Position numbers and translations under genes: made by a program. From an uncultured Candidatus Saccharibacteria bacterium (GTDB lineage: Bacteria > Patescibacteriota > Minisyncoccia > Phycocordibacterales > Zambryskibacteraceae), in assembly GCA_964608585.1 (NCBI GenBank), contig CAZSOL010000001.1, forward strand, positions 75,666 through 139,665: a stretch of 64,000 bases of DNA. Direction: 5' to 3'. The notes under the pieces were generated by a model. The model worked only from the letters and a program-made list of their open reading frames with translations, was not told the DNA's origin and did no database searches. Numbering within the stretch: the first letter of the stretch is position 1; each line of letters begins with the position of its first letter. Positions 21,648-53,066 of the stretch are shown here, in pieces.

Positions 21648-22145
21648 TTACTTTCTGAACCTCTCCACATCATTCTTCCAAGCCTCTCTGGTGATTGGTC
21701 CAACTATCCCTTCTGGCTCTATACCGAGTGACTCTTGATACCTCTTCACACTCTCTAGAGTTACTTCGCCAAAGTAACTAGTCAGCTCTTCTTCCTCAGG
21801 CCAGAACCCTTTCCACATTAAGAAATCTTGGAGGAGCAAAACCTCTCTACTTCTCTCACCGAGAACCAAGCTTCTCTCTGGCACCTCAAACGAGGGGGGT
21901 GGGGTTCTCTTAGTGTGGTTTATAAGAGCTGGGGCTACGTCTCTGTCGATCTCTTCAAACACCAAGGTTACGTTGTGGACAAATATGTCGCCAGAGACGA
22001 TAAGACCAAGTACTCCAACTAGGAGCAAGAAGTGTAGTGAGTGAGTGGATAGGTGTTTCCTTGTGAAAGTCCTAAAGGAATTCATTACAAATATTGTACC
22101 AAAGAAATTTGATTTGAATCGTATTTTTGGTATGATTTTCCACAT
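21648..22145 (-). CDS. Membrane-anchored protein with a C-terminal peptidoglycan-binding (PG_binding_1-like) domain
   Basis: VLLLQDFLMWKGFWP...SYFGEVTLESVKRYQESLGIEPEGIVGPITREAW. Confidence 0.55.
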   Translation of the reverse strand: MWKIIPKIRFKSNFFGTIFVMNSFRTFTRKHLSTHSLHFLLLVGVLGLIVSGDIFVHNVTLVFEEIDRDVAPALINHTKRTPPPSFEVPERSLVLGERSREVLLLQDFLMWKGFWPEEEELTSYFGEVTLESVKRYQESLGIEPEGIVGPITREAWKNDVERFRK

Positions 22146-23125: not shown

Positions 23126-23414
23126 CTGTTGAGTATGTCTTTGTAGTAATTTAACTTGTAACGTCTACTTTCTTTCCTTGAGAGTCTGTAATGAGTTAAC
23201 GAATTAAGTTGAACCGAAATAGATTTATCTACCGTTCATTCTGTTTGAGACGATAGACTTGGGAAGAGCGACTATTGTCCACTAAGCCTATAGTCCAATG
23301 CAACCATATCTGACTGGCTAAATCAAACCAAACTATGGATAAGCTGTGGAAAACATGTGGATTTCTTCAAATTGTGAGTAATAGACTTTTTCTGTGTTAT
23401 TCTAGAGCACAAAT

Positions 23415-31418: not shown

Positions 31419-31458
31419 AAAACCGCCCGCGAAGCGAGCGGCTTCGACGGGCGGGTTG
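31419..31458. terminator. GC-rich nested hairpin (aaccgcccg-cgaagcgagcggcttcg-acgggcgggtt), bidirectional terminator between tgt and the convergent small gene
   Basis: 9-bp outer stem with an inner 7-bp hairpin; A-rich upstream, T-rich downstream. Confidence 0.65.
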
Positions 31459-31459
31459 G

Positions 31460-31678
31460 TTACTTCTTTCCCTCGATCACACTTTCGAGCTTGCTCATGG
31501 CCGCAGTGATGAACATTGAGATCGACATTAGAGCGTTGAAGGTTGCGAGGCCGTACTGGTTACTCTCAACGTAGGACCCTGCAATTGCCGCCAGGATTAG
31601 CCCTAAAACGAACCACAAAGCAGGCATAGTGTCTCCAAATAGGTGAGAGTCGAAGAACATCTTTATTAACTTTATCAT
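31460..31678 (-). CDS. Small membrane protein (66-72 aa, start uncertain), hypothetical
   Basis: Two TM helices; minus-strand TTGACA -35 (31692..31697) only about 14-32 nt upstream, so the leader is short or the mRNA is leaderless from the second Met. Confidence 0.45.
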   Translation of the reverse strand: MIKLIKMFFDSHLFGDTMPALWFVLGLILAAIAGSYVESNQYGLATFNALMSISMFITAAMSKLESVIEGKK

Positions 31679-31742
31679 ATTACATAAGTATTGTCAAGTA
31701 CCAATTGAATACATCTAAGAAACGTTGTAATATAGGCTTTAA

Positions 31743-39558: not shown

Positions 39559-39561
39559 AGT

Positions 39562-39632
39562 GGACCTACGGGGAGTCGAACCCCGACCTGTTCCATGCCA
39601 TGGAACCGTTCTACCGCTATACTATAGGCCCT
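39562..39632 (-). tRNA. tRNA-Ala (anticodon GGC)
   Basis: Acceptor GGGCCTA/TAGGTCC with a G3:U70 wobble pair (Ala identity element); anticodon stem GTTCC/GGAAC with loop ATGGCAT; T-arm CGGGG-TTCGACT-CCCCG; D-stem imperfect. Confidence 0.75.
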
Positions 39633-39686
39633 GACAGCACTATTTTTATTGATTTTCGGCCTGTTGTCGAGTATATTAAAGCCCTT

Positions 39687-39759
39687 GGGCCCTTAGCTTA
39701 GTTGGTAGAGCGCCTCATTTGCAATGAGGAGGTCATCGGTTCGAATCCGATAGGGTCCA
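39687..39759 (+). tRNA. tRNA-Ala (anticodon TGC)
   Basis: Acceptor GGGCCCT/AGGGTCC with G3:U70; D-arm GCTT/GAGC; anticodon stem CCTCA/TGAGG with loop TTTGCAA; T-arm ATCGG-TTCGAAT-CCGAT. Confidence 0.85.
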
Positions 39760-39817
39760 CCCAATTTGAGCTCAAAATGTGGTAAGATAGTCGAGGTTAG
39801 CTAATATAATCAATTTT

Positions 39818-40227: not shown

Positions 40228-40809
40228 ATGAAGAAAAAGAAGATATTTATCCTACTTGGGCACCCAGACAAGGACACTCTTAACGGCACTCTAGCTAGTG
40301 AGTACGAGCGCGGAGCCGAGGAGGTAGGACACGAGACAAGGAGGATGAACCTAGGCGACATGCAGTTTGACCCCATACTCCACAAGGGGTACAAGGTTAT
40401 CCAAGAGCTAGAGCCAGACCTAAAGGCCTTCCAAGAGAACGTGAAGTGGGCTGACCACTTCATCATCTTCTATCCATCTTGGTGGTCTACTATGCCAGCT
40501 CTTCTTAAGGGACTCATAGACCGCGTGTGGCTACCCGGCTTCGCCTACCACTTTACCCACAACGGCAACTGGTGGCAGAAGCTCCTTAAGGGGCGCTCGG
40601 CGACTATGGTGGTGACCTCCGATACTATGCCTATCATTCAGAGGATTATGTTTGGCGATACGACTAACGAGCTTAGGAAGGGTATCTTGGGCTTCTCTGG
40701 CTTCTCTCCTGTGAGGGTATACAAGTTTGGCTACCTCAAGCACTTCGGCATGTGGGCAAGCGATAGGATGAAGCGAAAGGTCTACAGACTCGGCCAAAAG
40801 GCAAAGTAA
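40228..40809 (+). CDS. Flavodoxin-like-fold NAD(P)H-dependent oxidoreductase (FMN reductase / NAD(P)H dehydrogenase (quinone) family)
   Basis: KIFILLGHPDKDTLNGTLA...HFIIFYPSWWSTMPALLKGLIDRVWLPGFAY. Confidence 0.7.
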   Translation: MKKKKIFILLGHPDKDTLNGTLASEYERGAEEVGHETRRMNLGDMQFDPILHKGYKVIQELEPDLKAFQENVKWADHFIIFYPSWWSTMPALLKGLIDRVWLPGFAYHFTHNGNWWQKLLKGRSATMVVTSDTMPIIQRIMFGDTTNELRKGILGFSGFSPVRVYKFGYLKHFGMWASDRMKRKVYRLGQKAK

Positions 40810-40816
40810 CTCACCC

Positions 40817-40852
40817 GACAAGGCAACGCCTTGTCGCAAATCTGTGGATAAC
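40817..40852 (+). repeat. Hairpin (gacaaggc-aac-gccttgtc) plus perfect DnaA-box (TGTGGATAA at 40843..40851) element, copy 1
   Basis: Near-identical copy at 51278..51312 (acaaggc-gtt-gccttgtc gcaaacctgtggataac); the loop triplet is inverted between the copies. Confidence 0.7.
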
Positions 40853-40855
40853 AAA

Positions 40856-40879
40856 AAACACGGGAACTCCGTGTTTTTT
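40856..40879. terminator. Bidirectional intrinsic terminator aaaaaacacgg-gaact-ccgtgttttttg
   Basis: 6-bp stem flanked by an A-run and a T-run; lies between convergent genes. Confidence 0.7.
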
Positions 40880-40899
40880 GTTTGCTTAACTACTTACTT

Positions 40900-45352: not shown

Positions 45353-48037
45353 ATGAAGGAGTACGACCCAAAGGATATAGAAACCAAGTGGCAGGCGGAG
45401 TGGGAGAAGAGTGGAATATACAAAGCCAAAGGAAAGGGGGAGAAGTATTACTCTCTTATTGAGTTCCCGTACCCTTCTGGAGACGGGCTTCATGTAGGTC
45501 ACCCAAGGCCTTATATAGGTATGGATGTTGTCTCTAGGAAGAGGCGTATGGAGGGTTACGACGTGCTTTACCCCATAGGTTGGGACGCCTTTGGTCTTCC
45601 TACGGAGAACTATGCCCTAAAGACTGGCAAAGACCCAAGACAAGTTACTAAAGAGAATTCGGAGAACTTCAAAAGACAGATAAAGTCTCTAGGCATATCT
45701 TTTGACTGGTCTCGTGAGGTGAACACCACTGACCCCAAGTACTACAAGTGGACGCAGTGGCTCTTCCTTAAGTTTTTGGAGGAGGGCTTGGCTTATAAAG
45801 CCAAGATGCCTATCAATTGGTGCCCAAAGGACAAGATTGGTCTTGCTAATGAGGAGGTGGTGGATGGTAAGTGCGAGAGGTGTGGTACAGAGGTAGAGCT
45901 AAGAGAGCGTGAGCAGTGGATGCTCAAGATTACTGCGTACGCAGAGCGACTCCTTAAAGACTTGGACGAGGTAGACTACCCCGAGCGAGTGAAGGCTCAA
46001 CAGAGGAATTGGATAGGCAAGAGCGAGGGCGCGCTTATAAAGTTCGACGATATCGAAGTATTCACAACTCGACCCGACACCATATACGGAGCAACCTTTA
46101 TTGTTGTGTCTGGCAAAGAGGATAGATTTACTGGTAGGTATGTGACGAACCCCGCCACGAAGGAGAAGATTCCCGTCTGGGAAGCAGAGTACGTACTCTC
46201 TGACTATGGCACCGGAGCTATTATGGCTGTACCTGCGCACGATGAGAGAGACTTTGAGTTTGCTAAGAAGCACGATTTGCCTATAAAGGAAGTGGTTATC
46301 GAGAGGATGATAGATAAAAGTAATCCTCACGTAGAAGGAAAGAAAATAATTTTTAGAGACGCAATTATTGCAGCAGTTAGGAATCCTAAGGACGGCAAAT
46401 ACATTTGCTTGAAGTGGAAGAAGCAACCATGGACCACCTTTGTCATGGGAGGTATTGAGGGAGAAGAGGATCCTGTTGTTGCAGCATTGAGGGAAGTCAA
46501 AGAAGAAACTGGATATAAAAATATAAAACATATACAAACTCTAAAGGATGCACAGTCTGAGTTTTTTGCTGCACATAAGGATGTAAATAGGGTAGCTCAC
46601 ACAAGAAACTTAATCTTTGAGCTAATAGACGAAGAGCGCGAGGAAATCTCGAACGAGGAAAAGGATACCCACGAGATAGTCTGGATGTCTGTTGATGAAA
46701 TTTTGGCTACCAAGATGACCCACAGTGAGATGCCGATATTTGTGGATTGGTTTAACGGGACAAGTAACCCCTTTGTAGGTATTGGTGTGTTAATAAATTC
46801 TGGTAAGTTTGATGGCTTAGAGTCGGAAGATGCTAAGAAGAAGATTACTAAGGCGGTTAAAGGCGAGTGGGTTACAAAGTTTAAGCTTAGAGACTGGGTC
46901 TTTAGCCGTCAGAGATATTGGGGAGAGCCTATACCAGTCATCCTTTGTAAGAAGTGCGGGATAGTGCCAGTACCAGAGAGTGACCTACCTGTAGAGCTTC
47001 CAGTTGTGGAGAAGTACGAGCCGACAGAAACAGGCGACTCCCCACTAGCCAAGATTGAGAGTTGGGTCAATGTGAGATGTCCACTTTGTGGTGATAAGGC
47101 CAAGAGAGAGACAGACGTAATGCCCAACTGGGCTGGCTCCTCTTGGTACTTCATGCGCTATACAGACCCAGAGAACGATAAGGAATTCGCTTCCAAGAAG
47201 GCCTTGAAGCACTGGATGCCAGTAGACTGGTATAACGGTGGCATGGAGCACACGACTTTGCACCTCTTGTACTCAAGATTTTGGAACAAGTTCCTCTTTG
47301 ATTTGAAATTAGTGCCTACAAGCGAGCCATACAAGAAGCGCACCTCACATGGACTCATCTTGGCAGAGGGAGGAGAGAAGATGAGTAAGTCCAAAGGCAA
47401 TGTGGTGAACCCAGACGATATTGTAGATCGTTTCGGTGCGGATACCTTACGACTCTACGAGATGTTTATGGGCCCATTTGAGCAGGCTATAGCTTGGAGT
47501 GAGTCTAGTCTTGTCGGACCAAGGCGTTTTATAGAGAGGGTGTGGAAGTTGAGAGGCAAGGTTGGTGAGGTAGAACCAAGCAACTTTCTAATGCACTCCA
47601 CAATCAAGAAGGTATCAGAAGACATAGAGAGCATGGGCTTCAACACAGCCGTATCTGCCATGATGGTTTGGGCTAATGAGTTAGATAAGAGGGAGGTTGT
47701 CTCTAGTGTTGAATATGAGACCTTACTCAAGCTTCTCTCTCCTTTTGCTCCACATGTGACAGAAGAGCTTTGGGCTAACCTTGGTCACAAAGAGTCTATC
47801 CATGAGAGTGAGTGGCCAAAGTGGGAAGAGAAGTATTTGGTCCAAGACGAGGTAACTATAGCTGTACAGATAAACGGGAAGGTGAGAGGGAAACTTGTAG
47901 TTTCTAGGAATACAGAAGAAGCAGAAGTAGAGAAGTTGGCTAAGCAACTACCAAATATTCTTAAGTGGATAGAGGGTAAAGATGTGAAGAAAGTGATAGT
48001 CGTCCCTCAAAAAATAGTAAATATTGTTATCGCTTGA
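45353..48037 (+). CDS. leuS: Leucyl-tRNA synthetase with an embedded Nudix hydrolase domain and a drastically shortened CP1 editing region
   Basis: HVGH (HIGH-type) and KMSKS; LeuRS blocks WCPKDKIGLANEEV, TTRPDT, GTGAIMAVPAHDERDFEFA, RDWVFSRQRYWGEPIP; Nudix box GGIEGEEDPVVAALREVKEETGY at about aa 366-388. Confidence 0.9.
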   Translation: MKEYDPKDIETKWQAEWEKSGIYKAKGKGEKYYSLIEFPYPSGDGLHVGHPRPYIGMDVVSRKRRMEGYDVLYPIGWDAFGLPTENYALKTGKDPRQVTKENSENFKRQIKSLGISFDWSREVNTTDPKYYKWTQWLFLKFLEEGLAYKAKMPINWCPKDKIGLANEEVVDGKCERCGTEVELREREQWMLKITAYAERLLKDLDEVDYPERVKAQQRNWIGKSEGALIKFDDIEVFTTRPDTIYGATFIVVSGKEDRFTGRYVTNPATKEKIPVWEAEYVLSDYGTGAIMAVPAHDERDFEFAKKHDLPIKEVVIERMIDKSNPHVEGKKIIFRDAIIAAVRNPKDGKYICLKWKKQPWTTFVMGGIEGEEDPVVAALREVKEETGYKNIKHIQTLKDAQSEFFAAHKDVNRVAHTRNLIFELIDEEREEISNEEKDTHEIVWMSVDEILATKMTHSEMPIFVDWFNGTSNPFVGIGVLINSGKFDGLESEDAKKKITKAVKGEWVTKFKLRDWVFSRQRYWGEPIPVILCKKCGIVPVPESDLPVELPVVEKYEPTETGDSPLAKIESWVNVRCPLCGDKAKRETDVMPNWAGSSWYFMRYTDPENDKEFASKKALKHWMPVDWYNGGMEHTTLHLLYSRFWNKFLFDLKLVPTSEPYKKRTSHGLILAEGGEKMSKSKGNVVNPDDIVDRFGADTLRLYEMFMGPFEQAIAWSESSLVGPRRFIERVWKLRGKVGEVEPSNFLMHSTIKKVSEDIESMGFNTAVSAMMVWANELDKREVVSSVEYETLLKLLSPFAPHVTEELWANLGHKESIHESEWPKWEEKYLVQDEVTIAVQINGKVRGKLVVSRNTEEAEVEKLAKQLPNILKWIEGKDVKKVIVVPQKIVNIVIA

Positions 48038-49135: not shown

Positions 49136-50377
49136 ATGCTATTTGAAGTGTTCTCCCCTTTGTTCAATCAAACTTTTTTTTGGGAGTTTATTGATATTGC
49201 TAAGGTCAGTGCACCGGTATGGATCCCTGTATTGCTGGGAGCTGTTTTCTTCGAAGTTTGGATTAGTTTGAAGCAAAGAGAGTGGGTCGCCTCACAAGGA
49301 AGCGTACTCCTTGAGATAAAGTTGCCCAGAGAGCAGATGAAGTCTCCTGTGGCGATGGAGATGTTCTTAAACCACTTAAACCAAGGTGGGGTGGGAACAC
49401 TTCTTGATGTGTATCTTAAGGGTAGAGTGAGGACGTGGTTCTCACTTGAGCTTGTCAGTATTGGTGGAGCAGTCAAGTTTTATATATGGATGCACAAATC
49501 CCATCGTACAAGAGTAGAGGCCCAACTATATGCTCAGTTCCCCAATATTGAGATCCACGAGGTTGAGGATTATGCTATGAAGGTTGACCACAACCCAGAG
49601 AAGTGGAAGTTTGGTAAGTTGCTCCAGTTTACTCTCACTAAGCCCGATGCTTATCCGATAAAGACTTATGTTGATTATGGTTTGGACAAGGATCCGAAGG
49701 AGGAGTATAAAAACGATCCAATAGTTTCTGTTATAGAGTATCTTGGCTCTCTCAAGGCTGGTGAGCAGGCTTGGATACAAATACTTGTAAGATCACACGC
49801 TAAGGAAGGACTTAAGCTTGGTAGGATATTCGTCAAACCAGACTGGAAGAAGGCTGTTGAGAGTGAGGTCAAGAAGATTCTTAAGGAAGCTCGCTTTAAG
49901 GTAGATGAGGAGAAGGCTCCTAGTGGTCAACACATGTCGGAGGGCCAGAAGGATGTAGTAAGGGCTATAGAGCGGACTACAGGCAAGATTGCTTTTGACA
50001 CAATGATTAGAGCTTTCTACTTTGCAGAGAAGGATAGTTTTAACGGAGCAAGTATCGGAGGTCTTATCGGCACAATGACCCAGTATAATTCGGCATCTTT
50101 GAACGGTTTCAGGCCAGACTTTAGTGCTGATTATGACTATCCGTGGCAGGACCCCTTTGGCAAGAAGAGGTTAAGTAATGAGAGGAAGCTCCTAGAGGCA
50201 TACAAGAGGAGATCCTTCTTCGCTCCACCATTTAGAAACTTTAAGGGCAAACCTTTCATCCTTACAACAGAAGAGCTTGCTACAATCTTCCACTTCCCAG
50301 GAGAGGTGGCTGCTACACCTTCTCTCTCTCGCATACCTTCGAAGAAGGCCGAGGCCCCCTCAAACCTACCCATATAA
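49136..50377 (+). CDS. Membrane-anchored hypothetical protein (413 aa)
   Basis: N-terminal TM APVWIPVLLGAVFFEVWI; no recognised domain; conserved-looking C-terminal LTTEELATIFHFPGE. Confidence 0.4.
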   Translation: MLFEVFSPLFNQTFFWEFIDIAKVSAPVWIPVLLGAVFFEVWISLKQREWVASQGSVLLEIKLPREQMKSPVAMEMFLNHLNQGGVGTLLDVYLKGRVRTWFSLELVSIGGAVKFYIWMHKSHRTRVEAQLYAQFPNIEIHEVEDYAMKVDHNPEKWKFGKLLQFTLTKPDAYPIKTYVDYGLDKDPKEEYKNDPIVSVIEYLGSLKAGEQAWIQILVRSHAKEGLKLGRIFVKPDWKKAVESEVKKILKEARFKVDEEKAPSGQHMSEGQKDVVRAIERTTGKIAFDTMIRAFYFAEKDSFNGASIGGLIGTMTQYNSASLNGFRPDFSADYDYPWQDPFGKKRLSNERKLLEAYKRRSFFAPPFRNFKGKPFILTTEELATIFHFPGEVAATPSLSRIPSKKAEAPSNLPI

Positions 50378-51264
50378 TGCCACCGATAGAATTACCAAAA
50401 GACAAGAGGATATACGTGTTTGGGGGTCTTTTTTTCTTCCTATTTTTGTACGCCTTCGCCTTCTCATCTCCGAGGAACTTCCCAGTTGATACTATTATTA
50501 CTTTGGAGAAGGGGGCTGGGCTGACTCAATTAGCAAACAAGTTGGAAGATATGGGAGTGATACGTTCCAAACTTTGGTTTAGGACAGCAGTCATACTCTT
50601 TGAAAGTGAGAGAGGGATACAAGCAGGAGATTACTATCTGTCTAGAAGACAAAATGCCATCTCTCTAGCGTGGCGGATGACTCATGGTCGGCACGGCTTG
50701 GCGGAGATAAAGATCACTGTCCCAGAAGGTTTTACTAATCAAGAGATATCAGACCTCTTTGATGAGAGATTCTCTAATTTTGAAAGAGAGAGGTTCTTGG
50801 AGTTGTCTCAAGAGGGATATATGTTCCCTGATACATATTTCGTAAGAGTTAATGCTACGACCGAAGATGTAGTAGAACTCTTCAAGAGCAATTATGAGAA
50901 GAAGGTCTCTCCACTCAGAGAGAGGATGAGAGAGTTCGGAAAGACAGAAGAAGAGATTATCAAGATGGCTTCTATCATAGAAGGGGAGGTACAAACTTTT
51001 GAGGACAAGCAGACCATCTCTGGTATTCTCTGGAAGCGCCTATCTATTGGTATGGCCTTACAAGTAGATGCAGACCCAAAGACTTATGAAGAGCCGGGGT
51101 TACCAAAGCAACCTATCAACAATCCCGGGCTTCTCTCTATAGAGGCGGCTCTCACCCCCAAGAGCTCCCCGTACTTCTACTTCTTAAATGCGAAGTCGGA
51201 TGGTGCAACTTACTTTGCCGAAACCTTAGAGGAGCATATCTTAAATATCCAAAAACATCTCTAA
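50377..51264 (+). CDS. mltG: Endolytic murein transglycosylase MltG (YceG family)
   Basis: N-terminal TM; YceG-like segments IQAGDYYL, PEGFTNQEI, MASIIEGE, GLPKQPINNPG. Confidence 0.75.
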   Translation: MPPIELPKDKRIYVFGGLFFFLFLYAFAFSSPRNFPVDTIITLEKGAGLTQLANKLEDMGVIRSKLWFRTAVILFESERGIQAGDYYLSRRQNAISLAWRMTHGRHGLAEIKITVPEGFTNQEISDLFDERFSNFERERFLELSQEGYMFPDTYFVRVNATTEDVVELFKSNYEKKVSPLRERMREFGKTEEEIIKMASIIEGEVQTFEDKQTISGILWKRLSIGMALQVDADPKTYEEPGLPKQPINNPGLLSIEAALTPKSSPYFYFLNAKSDGATYFAETLEEHILNIQKHL

Positions 51265-51277
51265 CCTCAGCCCCCAA

Positions 51278-51312
51278 ACAAGGCGTTGCCTTGTCGCAAA
51301 CCTGTGGATAAC
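51278..51312 (+). repeat. Hairpin plus perfect DnaA-box (TGTGGATAA at 51303..51311) element, copy 2
   Basis: See 40817..40852; again placed directly after a plus-strand stop codon (mltG). Confidence 0.7.
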
Positions 51313-51336
51313 TTTTTATGATAGAGTCACTAGGCT

Positions 51337-52374
51337 ATGAATAAAGGGAAGAAGGTCTTTGTGGGGCTTTCAGGAGGAGTGGACTCGGCCGTGAGCGCTG
51401 CCCTGCTAAAAGAACAAGGCTACGACGTCACAGGGGTGTTTATCAAAGTCTGGCAACCAGACTTTTTGACCTGTACTTGGAGAGAGGAGAGGCGAGACGC
51501 TATGCGTGTAGCCTCCAAGCTAGAGATCCCCTTCCTCTTCTTTGACTTCTCTGAAGAGTATAAGAAGGGTGTAGCAGACTACATGATAGAAGAGTACAAG
51601 AACGGAAGAACTCCTAATCCAGATGTGATGTGTAATAGGGAGGTGAAGTTTGGCGCCTTCTGGAACAAGGCTAAGGAGATGGGAGCGGACTTCATCGCTA
51701 CAGGTCACTATGTCAGAAATGAAGATGGGAGGCTTATGGAAGGGGTAGATAGCAACAAAGATCAGAGTTACTTCCTCTATACTCTCACTCAAGAGGACTT
51801 AGAGCACATCCTCTTCCCTATAGGGCACTTGAAGAAGGATGAAGTTAGGAGGCTAGCTAAGAAGTTTGGTCTTTCTAATGCCGACAAGGCTGATAGTCAA
51901 GGCATCTGCTTCTTGGGTGATGTAGACTTAGAAACTTTCTTGTCTAACTTTATAAAAGTGGAGAGGGGAGACGTGCTTAGTGTAGATGGAGAGGTTATCG
52001 GTAAGCACAAGGGGGCACTCTACTACACTCTTGGAGAGCGACATGGTTTTGAAATATTTAAGAAAGGTGTTGTTTCTAAACCCTTCTATGTAGTGAGTAA
52101 GGATATGAAGGCAAACACCATCATTGTCTCAAACAAAGAGAAAGAGATAGAAGACTTCAAGAAAAAGGATATTGTTGTAACAAAAATAAACTGGATAAAC
52201 AAACTAAAATCTAATGATCTAGAAGCAAGAGTAAGATACAGACAAGAGAGGCTACAAATAAAATTAGAAAATAGCCGAGTCATCTTCAAAAATCCTCAAA
52301 CCGTCGCATCTGGCCAAGCTATCGTCTTTTATCATGCTGATGAATGTTTGGGGGGTGGTATAATTGAGAAATGA
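51337..52374 (+). CDS. mnmA: tRNA-specific 2-thiouridylase MnmA
   Basis: PP-loop VFVGLSGGVDSAV; CNREVKFGAF; C-terminal thiouridylase domain. Confidence 0.9.
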   Translation: MNKGKKVFVGLSGGVDSAVSAALLKEQGYDVTGVFIKVWQPDFLTCTWREERRDAMRVASKLEIPFLFFDFSEEYKKGVADYMIEEYKNGRTPNPDVMCNREVKFGAFWNKAKEMGADFIATGHYVRNEDGRLMEGVDSNKDQSYFLYTLTQEDLEHILFPIGHLKKDEVRRLAKKFGLSNADKADSQGICFLGDVDLETFLSNFIKVERGDVLSVDGEVIGKHKGALYYTLGERHGFEIFKKGVVSKPFYVVSKDMKANTIIVSNKEKEIEDFKKKDIVVTKINWINKLKSNDLEARVRYRQERLQIKLENSRVIFKNPQTVASGQAIVFYHADECLGGGIIEK

Positions 52375-53066
52375 ATATAGTAAAAGCCGATGGAACTGTA
52401 GCCATCTTTGACCCCTCTAAGCTTCGGGCATCGCTTCTTAGAGCTAAGGCGAGCGAGGAGGCAACAGAGAAGGTGATGAGTCAGATCATGCCTGAAATTC
52501 GTGAGGGGATGACAACAAAAGAGATATATAACCACGCCTTTAGGTATCTAGTAGAGCACCAAAAACCGGTAGCTCAGAGGTATTCTGTGAGACGTGCTCT
52601 TCTTGATATGGGGCCAACAGGCTTCCCCTTTGAGGACTTTGTAGCAGAAACTCTAAAGGTGAGAGGATACGAAACTCTAACAAGACAAAATGTACTTGGT
52701 GGGTGCGTTCAACATGAGGTAGATGTCGTGGCTTGGAACAAGGACGAACTCATAATGGTTGAGGCTAAGTTCCACAACGGACTTGGAGTTAAGTCGGATC
52801 TCAAGGTGGCCTTGTATGTCAAAGCAAGGATGGACGACATTAAGGAGAACGTCTTTGACTATGGAGGAGAGAACAGGAAGGTTACGGATGGATGGCTCGT
52901 GACCAACACCAAGTTCTCCTCTACTGCTCTACACTATGGACTTTGCCAAAAGTTAACCATGATAGGATGGAATTATCCGGAGAAGGGGAATCTCCAAGAC
53001 ATGATAGAGGAGAACCCCGAACTTCTAGACTTAATCTTTAAAAAACATATAGAGCAAAACTTATGA
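52371..53066 (+). CDS. ATP-cone domain fused to an Mrr-like PD-(D/E)xK restriction-endonuclease-type domain
   Basis: ATP-cone MNIVKADGTVAIFDPSKLRASLLRA; nuclease core FEDFVAETLKVRGYE...VDVVAW...IMVEAKFH; 4-nt overlap with the mnmA stop. Confidence 0.6.
   Translation: MNIVKADGTVAIFDPSKLRASLLRAKASEEATEKVMSQIMPEIREGMTTKEIYNHAFRYLVEHQKPVAQRYSVRRALLDMGPTGFPFEDFVAETLKVRGYETLTRQNVLGGCVQHEVDVVAWNKDELIMVEAKFHNGLGVKSDLKVALYVKARMDDIKENVFDYGGENRKVTDGWLVTNTKFSSTALHYGLCQKLTMIGWNYPEKGNLQDMIEENPELLDLIFKKHIEQNL

Follow-up and report, generated by a model that had tools for sequence, protein, structure and literature searches.

A hairpin joined to a DnaA box, possibly a REP-like repeat, behind two genes of a Parcubacteria genome

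The closest described counterparts of the element reported here are the REP-type repeats, short extragenic palindromes lying after genes, which are alike within a genome, differ between lineages, are present in some relatives and absent from others, and occur in tens to hundreds of copies per genome. In proteobacteria, the REP arrangements RIP/BIME-1 carry an IHF site, while the Correia elements of Neisseria are MITEs of 100-150 nt. A DnaA box is also found at the outside end of IS50/Tn5, for which DnaA is a host factor. Template-switch mutation is known in quasipalindromes, and in palindromes it can create stem complementarity without selection. The genomes of candidate-phyla-radiation (CPR) bacteria are tiny and very poor in repeats, and to our knowledge almost nothing is known about how they control the initiation of replication. 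REPINs are made of two REPs in inverted orientation, being doublets by definition (PMC3337134). Binding sites for DnaA outside the origin have been described as datA and DARS in E. coli and as DnaA-box clusters in B. subtilis (PMC3245932, PMC4447404), and small inversions of the loop between perfect hairpin arms are well known in plastid genomes (PMC12371153).

The DNA analysed here is a stretch of 64 kb (the window) on a 238-kb contig of a Parcubacteria/Minisyncoccota MAG, the closest named relatives being Parcubacteria. In this stretch, a hairpin is twice followed by a perfect DnaA box. The features concerned are the following:

40807-40852, + strand: copy 1, whole element TAACTCACCCGACAAGGCAACGCCTTGTCGCAAATCTGTGGATAAC, from the TAA stop of a flavodoxin-like gene to the end of the DnaA box; covariance model score 51.6 bits
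40816-40836, + strand: hairpin of copy 1, a 9-bp perfect stem CGACAAGGC / GCCTTGTCG with loop AAC, read directly and by RNA fold
40816-40824 with 40828-40836, + strand: stem arms of copy 1, 9 bp
40842-40852, + strand: DnaA box of copy 1, 11-mer CTGTGGATAAC, with the 9-mer TGTGGATAA at 40843-40851
40853-40883: bidirectional intrinsic terminator (A-tract, CACGG...CCGTG stem, T-tract), separate from the element and conserved in the element-less relative L143
51262-51312, + strand: copy 2, whole element TAACCTCAGCCCCCAAACAAGGCGTTGCCTTGTCGCAAACCTGTGGATAAC, starting with the YceG/MltG stop codon TAA and ending with the DnaA box; covariance model score 52.1 bits
51278-51294, + strand: hairpin of copy 2, a 7-bp perfect stem ACAAGGC / GCCTTGT with loop GTT, by RNA fold
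51302-51312, + strand: DnaA box of copy 2, 11-mer CTGTGGATAAC, with the 9-mer at 51303-51311
51313-51323, + strand: TTTTTATGATA, a possible -10-like element of mnmA, 14 nt upstream of its ATG

Both copies match the pattern ACAAGGCNNNGCCTTGTCGCAAANCTGTGGATAAC (ACAAGGC-NNN-GCCTTGTCGCAAA-N-CTGTGGATAAC) on the + strand without a mismatch, at 40818-40852 and 51278-51312, and 31 of the 35 bases of this core are identical. No match was obtained in 100 dinucleotide shuffles of the window, even with 3 mismatches allowed, which excludes a chance repeat and bears out the initial annotation, where the two hairpin-plus-box copies had first been described. The copies lie 10.5 kb apart on the same strand, each directly after a + strand stop codon (TAA 40807-40809 and TAA 51262-51264) and in the same orientation, as had also been claimed. 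Two modules can be distinguished, a perfect hairpin of 7-9 bp with a 3-nt loop and, 6-8 nt downstream, a DnaA box whose conserved form is the 11-mer CTGTGGATAAC within AAA-N-CTGTGGATAAC. The similarity between the copies extends upstream as far as the stop codons, through a C-rich linker preceded by TAAC, giving an element of about 46-51 nt. A covariance model was built from five copies and used for the search of related loci; neither this model nor a generic hairpin-plus-near-box scan found a further copy in the 64-kb window.

The loops of the two hairpins, AAC in copy 1 and GTT in copy 2, are mutually inverted, and the 19-nt palindrome of copy 2 is the reverse complement of that of copy 1 except for its first base (G to A). 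The flipped loop had been described earlier together with unchanged stems; the inversion stands, whereas the stems are of 9 bp and 7 bp. At the borders, both copies have TAAC at their left edge as well as at their right end, which is suggestive only as a target duplication, the empty sites of relatives being too diverged to define one, and terminal inverted repeats are not clear. The ends of copy 2 (CCTCAG...CTGTGG) are complementary at 5 of 6 positions and copy 1 has no such ends; an outer helix CCUCAG/CUGUGG around the hairpin was dropped, as it is not kept in the flavodoxin-site copies.

Both hairpins are short palindromes in extragenic DNA between genes. Copy 1 is found after the TAA of a gene for a flavodoxin-like NAD(P)H oxidoreductase (40228-40809) and before the terminator at 40853-40883, which is common to this gene and a convergent fn3-domain gene. 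Copy 2 occupies the spacer that separates YceG/MltG (50377-51264, stop TAA) from mnmA (ATG at 51337). The adjoining TTTTTATGATA is conserved together with the box in the related locus L007, and in L006 it stays beside mnmA after an insertion that has parted it from the box; probably this sequence is part of the target site and not of the element. A promoter scan (-35/-10 at 16-18 nt spacing) reported no sigma-70 consensus at either copy or at TTTTTATGATA, and a sigma-70 promoter was also discarded because at copy 1 it would fire straight into the terminator. The two copies cannot be read as att sites of an integrated element spanning 40.8-51.3 kb, since this segment contains housekeeping genes (LeuRS, YchF, YceG) and its gene order is the same in relatives that have no such repeats.

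Some neighbouring genes deserve a separate mention. The leucyl-tRNA synthetase (45353-48037) has 894 aa and an internal NUDIX domain match, most relatives having 718-727 aa and no NUDIX, and the long form is also present in L141. Directly downstream of mnmA, an ATP-cone domain and an Mrr-type restriction-endonuclease fold are fused in one gene (52371-53066), which is kept in all the relatives examined. At 39560-39763, a tRNA-Ala (GGC) gene on the minus strand and a tRNA-Ala (TGC) gene on the plus strand are divergent, the gap of about 55 nt between them holding sigma-70-like promoters.

In the YceG-mnmA spacer, the element is found at the same place in L006 and L007 (YceG 79% identical), with AAA-N-CTGTGGATAAC unchanged and with hairpins that read CAAGGA-ccg-TCCTTG and CCAAG-ccctccc-CTTGG, respectively. 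This site is without the element in L008, L009 and L011-L015, relatives at 71%, 62% and 55% identity. When L008 and the window are aligned manually, 'catttgTGATAGtgtcttagtcaATG' corresponds to 'ttttaTGATAGagtcactaggctATG', and the YceG stop of L008, a TGA within TGATAG, corresponds to the TGATAG located 20 nt before mnmA in the window. From this alignment, an insertion of about 54 nt at the end of YceG is deduced; in the window, L006 and L007, some 54 additional nt separate the final sense codon from the former stop. At the flavodoxin site, L140 (93% DNA identity to the window) carries the element with the hairpin of the L006 type, TAActatctaCCAAGGAccgTCCTTGGagaaaatCTGTGG, after which the contig ends. 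L143, from assembly GCA_013565675.1, with 86-87% DNA identity to the window, the same gene order and the same terminator, is without the element at this site and shows TAA+aatacataacacaaac, with 16 unrelated bases instead, and in the more distant L017, L011, L012, L015 and L141 the stop is followed directly by a terminator, with no element. Judged from these occupied and empty sites, the element is an insertion placed exactly at the stops of genes in its own orientation, and close relatives have gained or lost it.

The insertion that separates the box from mnmA in L006 (2677-3112, about 435 nt) is flanked on both sides by TTTTT(A)TGAT and has its own TTGACA-17-TATAAT promoter and an intrinsic terminator, an RNA fold with z = -3.75 and no Rfam match. 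It looks like a structured non-coding RNA gene, possibly itself inserted.

Hairpins in one genome resemble each other and differ from those in other genomes. The flavodoxin site of L140 and the YceG site of L006, which come from sister samples and are taken as one genome on the basis of the sample series and their matching levels of divergence, have the common hairpin CCAAGGA-ccg-TCCTTG. Over a 22-nt hairpin block, the two sites of one genome agree at 17/22 positions in the window, where three of the five differences are the loop flip, and at 21/22 between L140 and L006, whereas the same site compared between genomes agrees at only 11/22 and 12/22, the flanking DNA being 82-93% identical. The 5' linkers follow the site, not the genome. 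Between the window and L140/L006, two stem pairs have changed on both sides (A-U to C-G and C-G to A-U), and 82% of the cells are paired, against 27-44% with the partner columns slid, which with five sequences is modest support. Taking into account that the flanks and the box follow the site and the hairpin follows the genome, the element is inherited in place, with the hairpin alone kept alike in each genome and the box constant across genomes. These comparisons show flanks and box as inherited site by site, and a central hairpin of about 20 nt as genome-specific, its pairing preserved.

A third locus is the TGT-UvrB spacer of the distant relative L011, from assembly GCA_964504255.1, where the covariance model detected the element at 103-139 (34.5 bits, E 8e-8), with the sequence ACCGAGGC-ccg-GCCTTGGT-aaaaa-GGTGGGGATAAC. 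A truncated unit at 73-98 precedes it, the doublet being a direct tandem. The boxes of two near-identical strains differ, GGTGGGGATAAC in L011 and ACTGGAGATAAC in L012, where the box at this spacer reads CTGGAGATAAC; thus, since they are degenerate and different between such strains, the L011/L012 copies are decaying. In L143, the same spacer contains an intrinsic terminator whose stem is a window-type hairpin, CCCCCGACAAGGCtttGCTTTGTCGGGGG (CCCCCGACAAGGC-ttt-GCTTTGTCGGGGG). With this locus, the element is known from at least three different intergenic sites across the clade. The TGT-UvrB spacer is, in addition, a hotspot of change: 31419-31742 of the window, 1156-1731 of L143 and 1-465 of L011 are unalignable, and its contents include an 83-aa ORF with the window-type hairpin terminator in L143 and the tandem element with a small minus-strand ORF in L011.

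The explanation that we favour, giving it about half of our belief, is that the element constitutes a lineage-restricted, REP/MITE-like non-coding repeat carrying a DnaA site. The REP-like nature proposed in the initial annotation is sustained by a palindrome repeated beyond chance, by an insertion present or absent in relatives, by the three loci and by the genome-specific hairpin; it is weakened by the finding of only 2 copies in 64 kb, so that a 'dispersed family' rests on three loci across several genomes. Against a mobile nature, no transposase or RAYT (HUH Y1 transposase-like) domain was found among the ORFs of the window, nor did the analysis point to a mechanism of mobilisation.

As in REP, REPIN and BIME sequences, a short extragenic palindrome stands after genes, is alike within a genome and different between lineages, and is present or absent among relatives, and, as in REP/BIME, the site of a host DNA-binding protein is attached to the palindrome. 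The differences are that single hairpins are found here instead of inverted doublets, the sole doublet (L011 73-139) being a direct tandem, that the attached site is a DnaA box where RIP/BIME-1 have an IHF site, that the host has a reduced CPR genome, that the window contains no RAYT gene and that the copy number looks low. The Correia elements are comparable as small non-autonomous insertions near gene ends that are co-transcribed, form hairpins and contain sites for host factors, but the element described here has about 46 nt instead of 100-150 nt, no clear terminal inverted repeats and a target duplication that is suggestive only. Like datA, DARS and the B. subtilis clusters, which lie outside the origin, it places consensus DnaA boxes in intergenic DNA; those loci, however, are fixed and hold several boxes, whereas here each element has a single box, which is joined to a hairpin and comes and goes with the insertion. 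The Tn5 end is likewise a mobile-element end containing a DnaA box, although Tn5 is an autonomous transposon with the box inside the end bound by its transposase, and here there is no transposase and the box lies beside the hairpin. As for the plastid inversions, the loop is flipped between unchanged arms as in aac versus gtt, but they concern one locus over time, and here both states coexist in two copies of one genome.

If the element is such a repeat, its hairpin module would be homogenised by copying between copies, likely through template switching, or conversion of short tracts, with the palindromic arms as anchor. Since these arms read alike on both strands, the loop could be copied in either orientation, which would account for the flip between aac and gtt. 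The box, for its part, would be held constant by a protein that reads double-stranded DNA, for which DnaA is by far the likeliest candidate. DnaA might act as a host factor for the upkeep of the element, the copies might be a few extra DnaA sinks, or, at copy 2, the box might be an operator overlapping the promoter region of mnmA, with TATGAT as a possible -10. A more ambitious proposal, doubtful in our opinion, is that of a self-homogenising CPR mini-element with the DnaA box as its cargo, either recruiting DnaA for its propagation or repair at replication or providing the host with DnaA-titrating or regulating sites.

If true, a mobile or self-homogenising hairpin with a conserved consensus DnaA site would give REP-like DNA a cargo of a new kind, and, if the host uses such elements as DnaA-titrating sites, they would take the place of the datA, Hda and SeqA systems, none of which, as far as we know, has been described in CPR bacteria. 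The element also offers a testable handle on DnaA in an uncultured lineage, with a defined 11-mer, empty and occupied sites in close relatives and natural hairpin swaps. If just two copies exist, it would be a minor case of concerted evolution of a short intergenic motif.

The 9-mer TGTGGATAA is the reverse complement of the DnaA consensus TTATCCACA, which is matched at 9/9 positions in both copies of the window, in L006 and in L007. The 15-nt block AAA-N-CTGTGGATAAC is identical at 14/14 to 14/15 positions in all the pairs compared, only N differing; at the flavodoxin site, both genomes have T as this base. This orthologous identity is to be set against about 50% in the hairpin and the downstream spacer, the spacer adjoining the box being about half diverged between the window and L007. 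In the distant L011/L012, with their degenerate and differing boxes, the constraint fails. DnaA binding is a reasonable inference given that the box is the conserved part of the element. When the conserved block is compared with one of a few dozen classic motifs, the rough estimate for a chance match of 9/9 (11/11 with flanks) between the conserved block of a 35-nt element and the DnaA consensus is well below 1%, which makes DnaA binding the most likely reason for the constancy of the 11-mer. The invariant 11-mer is probably kept by constraint on its sequence, and the element probably binds DnaA.

Beyond the element, the enrichment of the 9-mer for which a test had been proposed is not observed. 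Exact TGTGGATAA occurs 2 times in the 64 kb, both inside the element copies, against 0.46 expected, and 6 of 100 shuffles reach 2; thus, the 9-mer is not enriched independently of the element. Outside element copies, a single perfect DnaA box, in L017, was found in about 152 kb of related loci. Nor does the window offer evidence that the copies cluster near an origin: it holds no dnaA or dnaN gene, and its GC skew tracks the gene strand without a separate origin signal, so that origin-proximal DnaA sites are unsupported. With one box per element, there is no multi-box cluster of the DnaA-box-cluster, datA or oriC type. That the element titrates or positions DnaA, as the initial annotation had put forward, is a speculation.

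Apart from the element, three near-consensus DnaA boxes (TATGGATAA, TGTGGAAAA and TGTGGATTT) lie in one orientation with 11-nt spacing at 23334-23364, in a divergent spacer (23126-23414) upstream of a VanY-like gene and in the lowest-GC kilobase of the area, and a further DnaA-like TTTTCCACA is found at 22136. The three boxes might represent a promoter regulated by DnaA or belong to an origin; there is no nearby dnaA/dnaN and no strand-independent switch of the skew, which for + strand genes amounts to about +0.10 to either side of the candidate spacer (23.1-23.4 kb).

Several other explanations have to be weighed against the REP-like repeat. An improbable one, though it deserves attention, is a cis-regulatory motif of few sites, in which a dimeric protein would read ACAAGGC-N3-GCCTTGT and act with DnaA at the adjoining box, and the hairpin would co-evolve with that dimeric protein. 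A perfect palindrome with a fixed 3-nt centre is what such a protein would bind, both sites lie in one 10-kb neighbourhood on one strand, and the missing transposase and the coexistence of a genome-specific hairpin with a site-orthologous box and flanks fit as well. However, about 10 parallel substitutions would be needed per site while the flanks changed by 7-18%, copying being more parsimonious, and a protein that reads the sequence would have to ignore the inverted loop. Moreover, close relatives with the same genes do without the element, a decaying copy is located at an unrelated third locus, and between a stop codon and the terminator of convergent genes there is nothing for copy 1 to regulate.

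We find it quite unlikely that the element acts as RNA, as a signal for stability, processing or protein binding in a 3' UTR or operon spacer, made of the hairpin and a single-stranded CUGUGGAUAAC tail whose resemblance to a DnaA box would be coincidental. Each copy directly adjoins the 3' side of a + strand gene and has the same orientation as that gene, copy 1 is upstream of the terminator and would therefore be present in the transcript, and pairing survives changes on both sides of the stem. Such a coincidence is hard to accept given the rough chance estimate made above for the exact match, and the flipped loop with an unchanged stem fits the behaviour of a palindrome at the DNA level. The copy 2 region folds no better than shuffles (z = -1.0), and relatives live without the element. 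An Rfam search gave only tRNAs at the gathering threshold and nothing credible at E <= 1 around either copy, which rules out a known RNA family.

It is also rather improbable that copy 2 alone is functional, as an end-of-gene hairpin of YceG joined to a DnaA-controlled promoter or operator of the mnmA operon, with copy 1 as a by-product of illegitimate duplication. The conservation of CTGTGGATAACTTTTTATGATA as a 22-nt block between the window and L007 would suit this proposal, as would the position of the box, at about -26 to -18 if TATGAT is the -10, and the presence of DNA-repair genes (UDG and a PolB-exonuclease-like protein) in the downstream operon. Yet a dead duplicate should drift, and the sites stay alike within each of two genomes; in L006, the insertion of about 435 nt lies between the box and TATGATA, the box having remained beside the hairpin; the scan shows no sigma-70 consensus promoter, and the third locus in L011 does not fit.

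Finally, it is very improbable that the element is a DnaA- or hairpin-dependent terminator or roadblock at the ends of transcription units, although it lies directly after stop codons and box-bound DnaA has been reported as an obstacle to RNA polymerase in E. coli, since an A-rich tract (GCAAAYC) and not a U-tract follows the hairpin, which is absent from the list of the terminator scan, copy 2 is inside an apparent operon, 25 nt before mnmA, and, judging from footprint sizes, a polymerase stopped at the box would stall before transcribing the full hairpin. An intrinsic terminator is discarded for the same lack of a U-tract and of a scan hit, and the regulated terminator of the initial annotation is unlikely, copy 1 having a separate, canonical intrinsic terminator that element-less relatives use alone. 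A DGR, a CRISPR repeat, a dif/Xer site and 16S complementarity were dropped, no matching feature being seen in the sequence alone.

Wider searches were made with several patterns. Viral contigs gave 0 matches with two patterns, and a strict-pattern scan of metagenomes gave 0 matches; a loose metagenome scan with AAANCTGTGGATAACTTTTT returned at least 120 unrelated DnaA-box contexts, and in the first 100 of these unrelated box-containing loci the hairpin of the element is absent, all scoring <=29 bits. A scan with a hairpin+GCAAA pattern of a genome collection not including the source genome had as its sole find a REP-like family in a Bacteroidia MAG (CAZHOC01), GCGACAAGGCAnTGCCTTGTCGCAAA, nested in longer inverted repeats (L003 4336-4361, L004 2381-2406, L005 650-675 and 1232-1257). 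Its stem, GCGACAAGGCAnTGCCTTGTCGC, is nearly the same as the window hairpin, it has no DnaA box, and the genes of this MAG (a P450-like protein and others) are not CPR-like. For 20 specified bases, about 1 chance match is expected in that scan, and the resemblance is probably due to convergence or chance. Among the genes at the edges of the window, GrpE led to a single 24.5-kb Logan contig, which ends 450 nt further on.

Among the metagenome contigs, twelve of low GC (L021, L037, L048, L059, L068, L085, L095, L104, L113, L117, L125 and L126) share a conserved context, '..ttaattatctcgcat..acaatacttttt..AAAACTGTGGATAACTTTTT', which in the five scanned against Rfam (L059, L068, L104, L113 and L126) has genes for rRNA, tRNA or RNase P RNA close by. 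This context is a recurrent, DnaA-box-containing non-coding region of another lineage.
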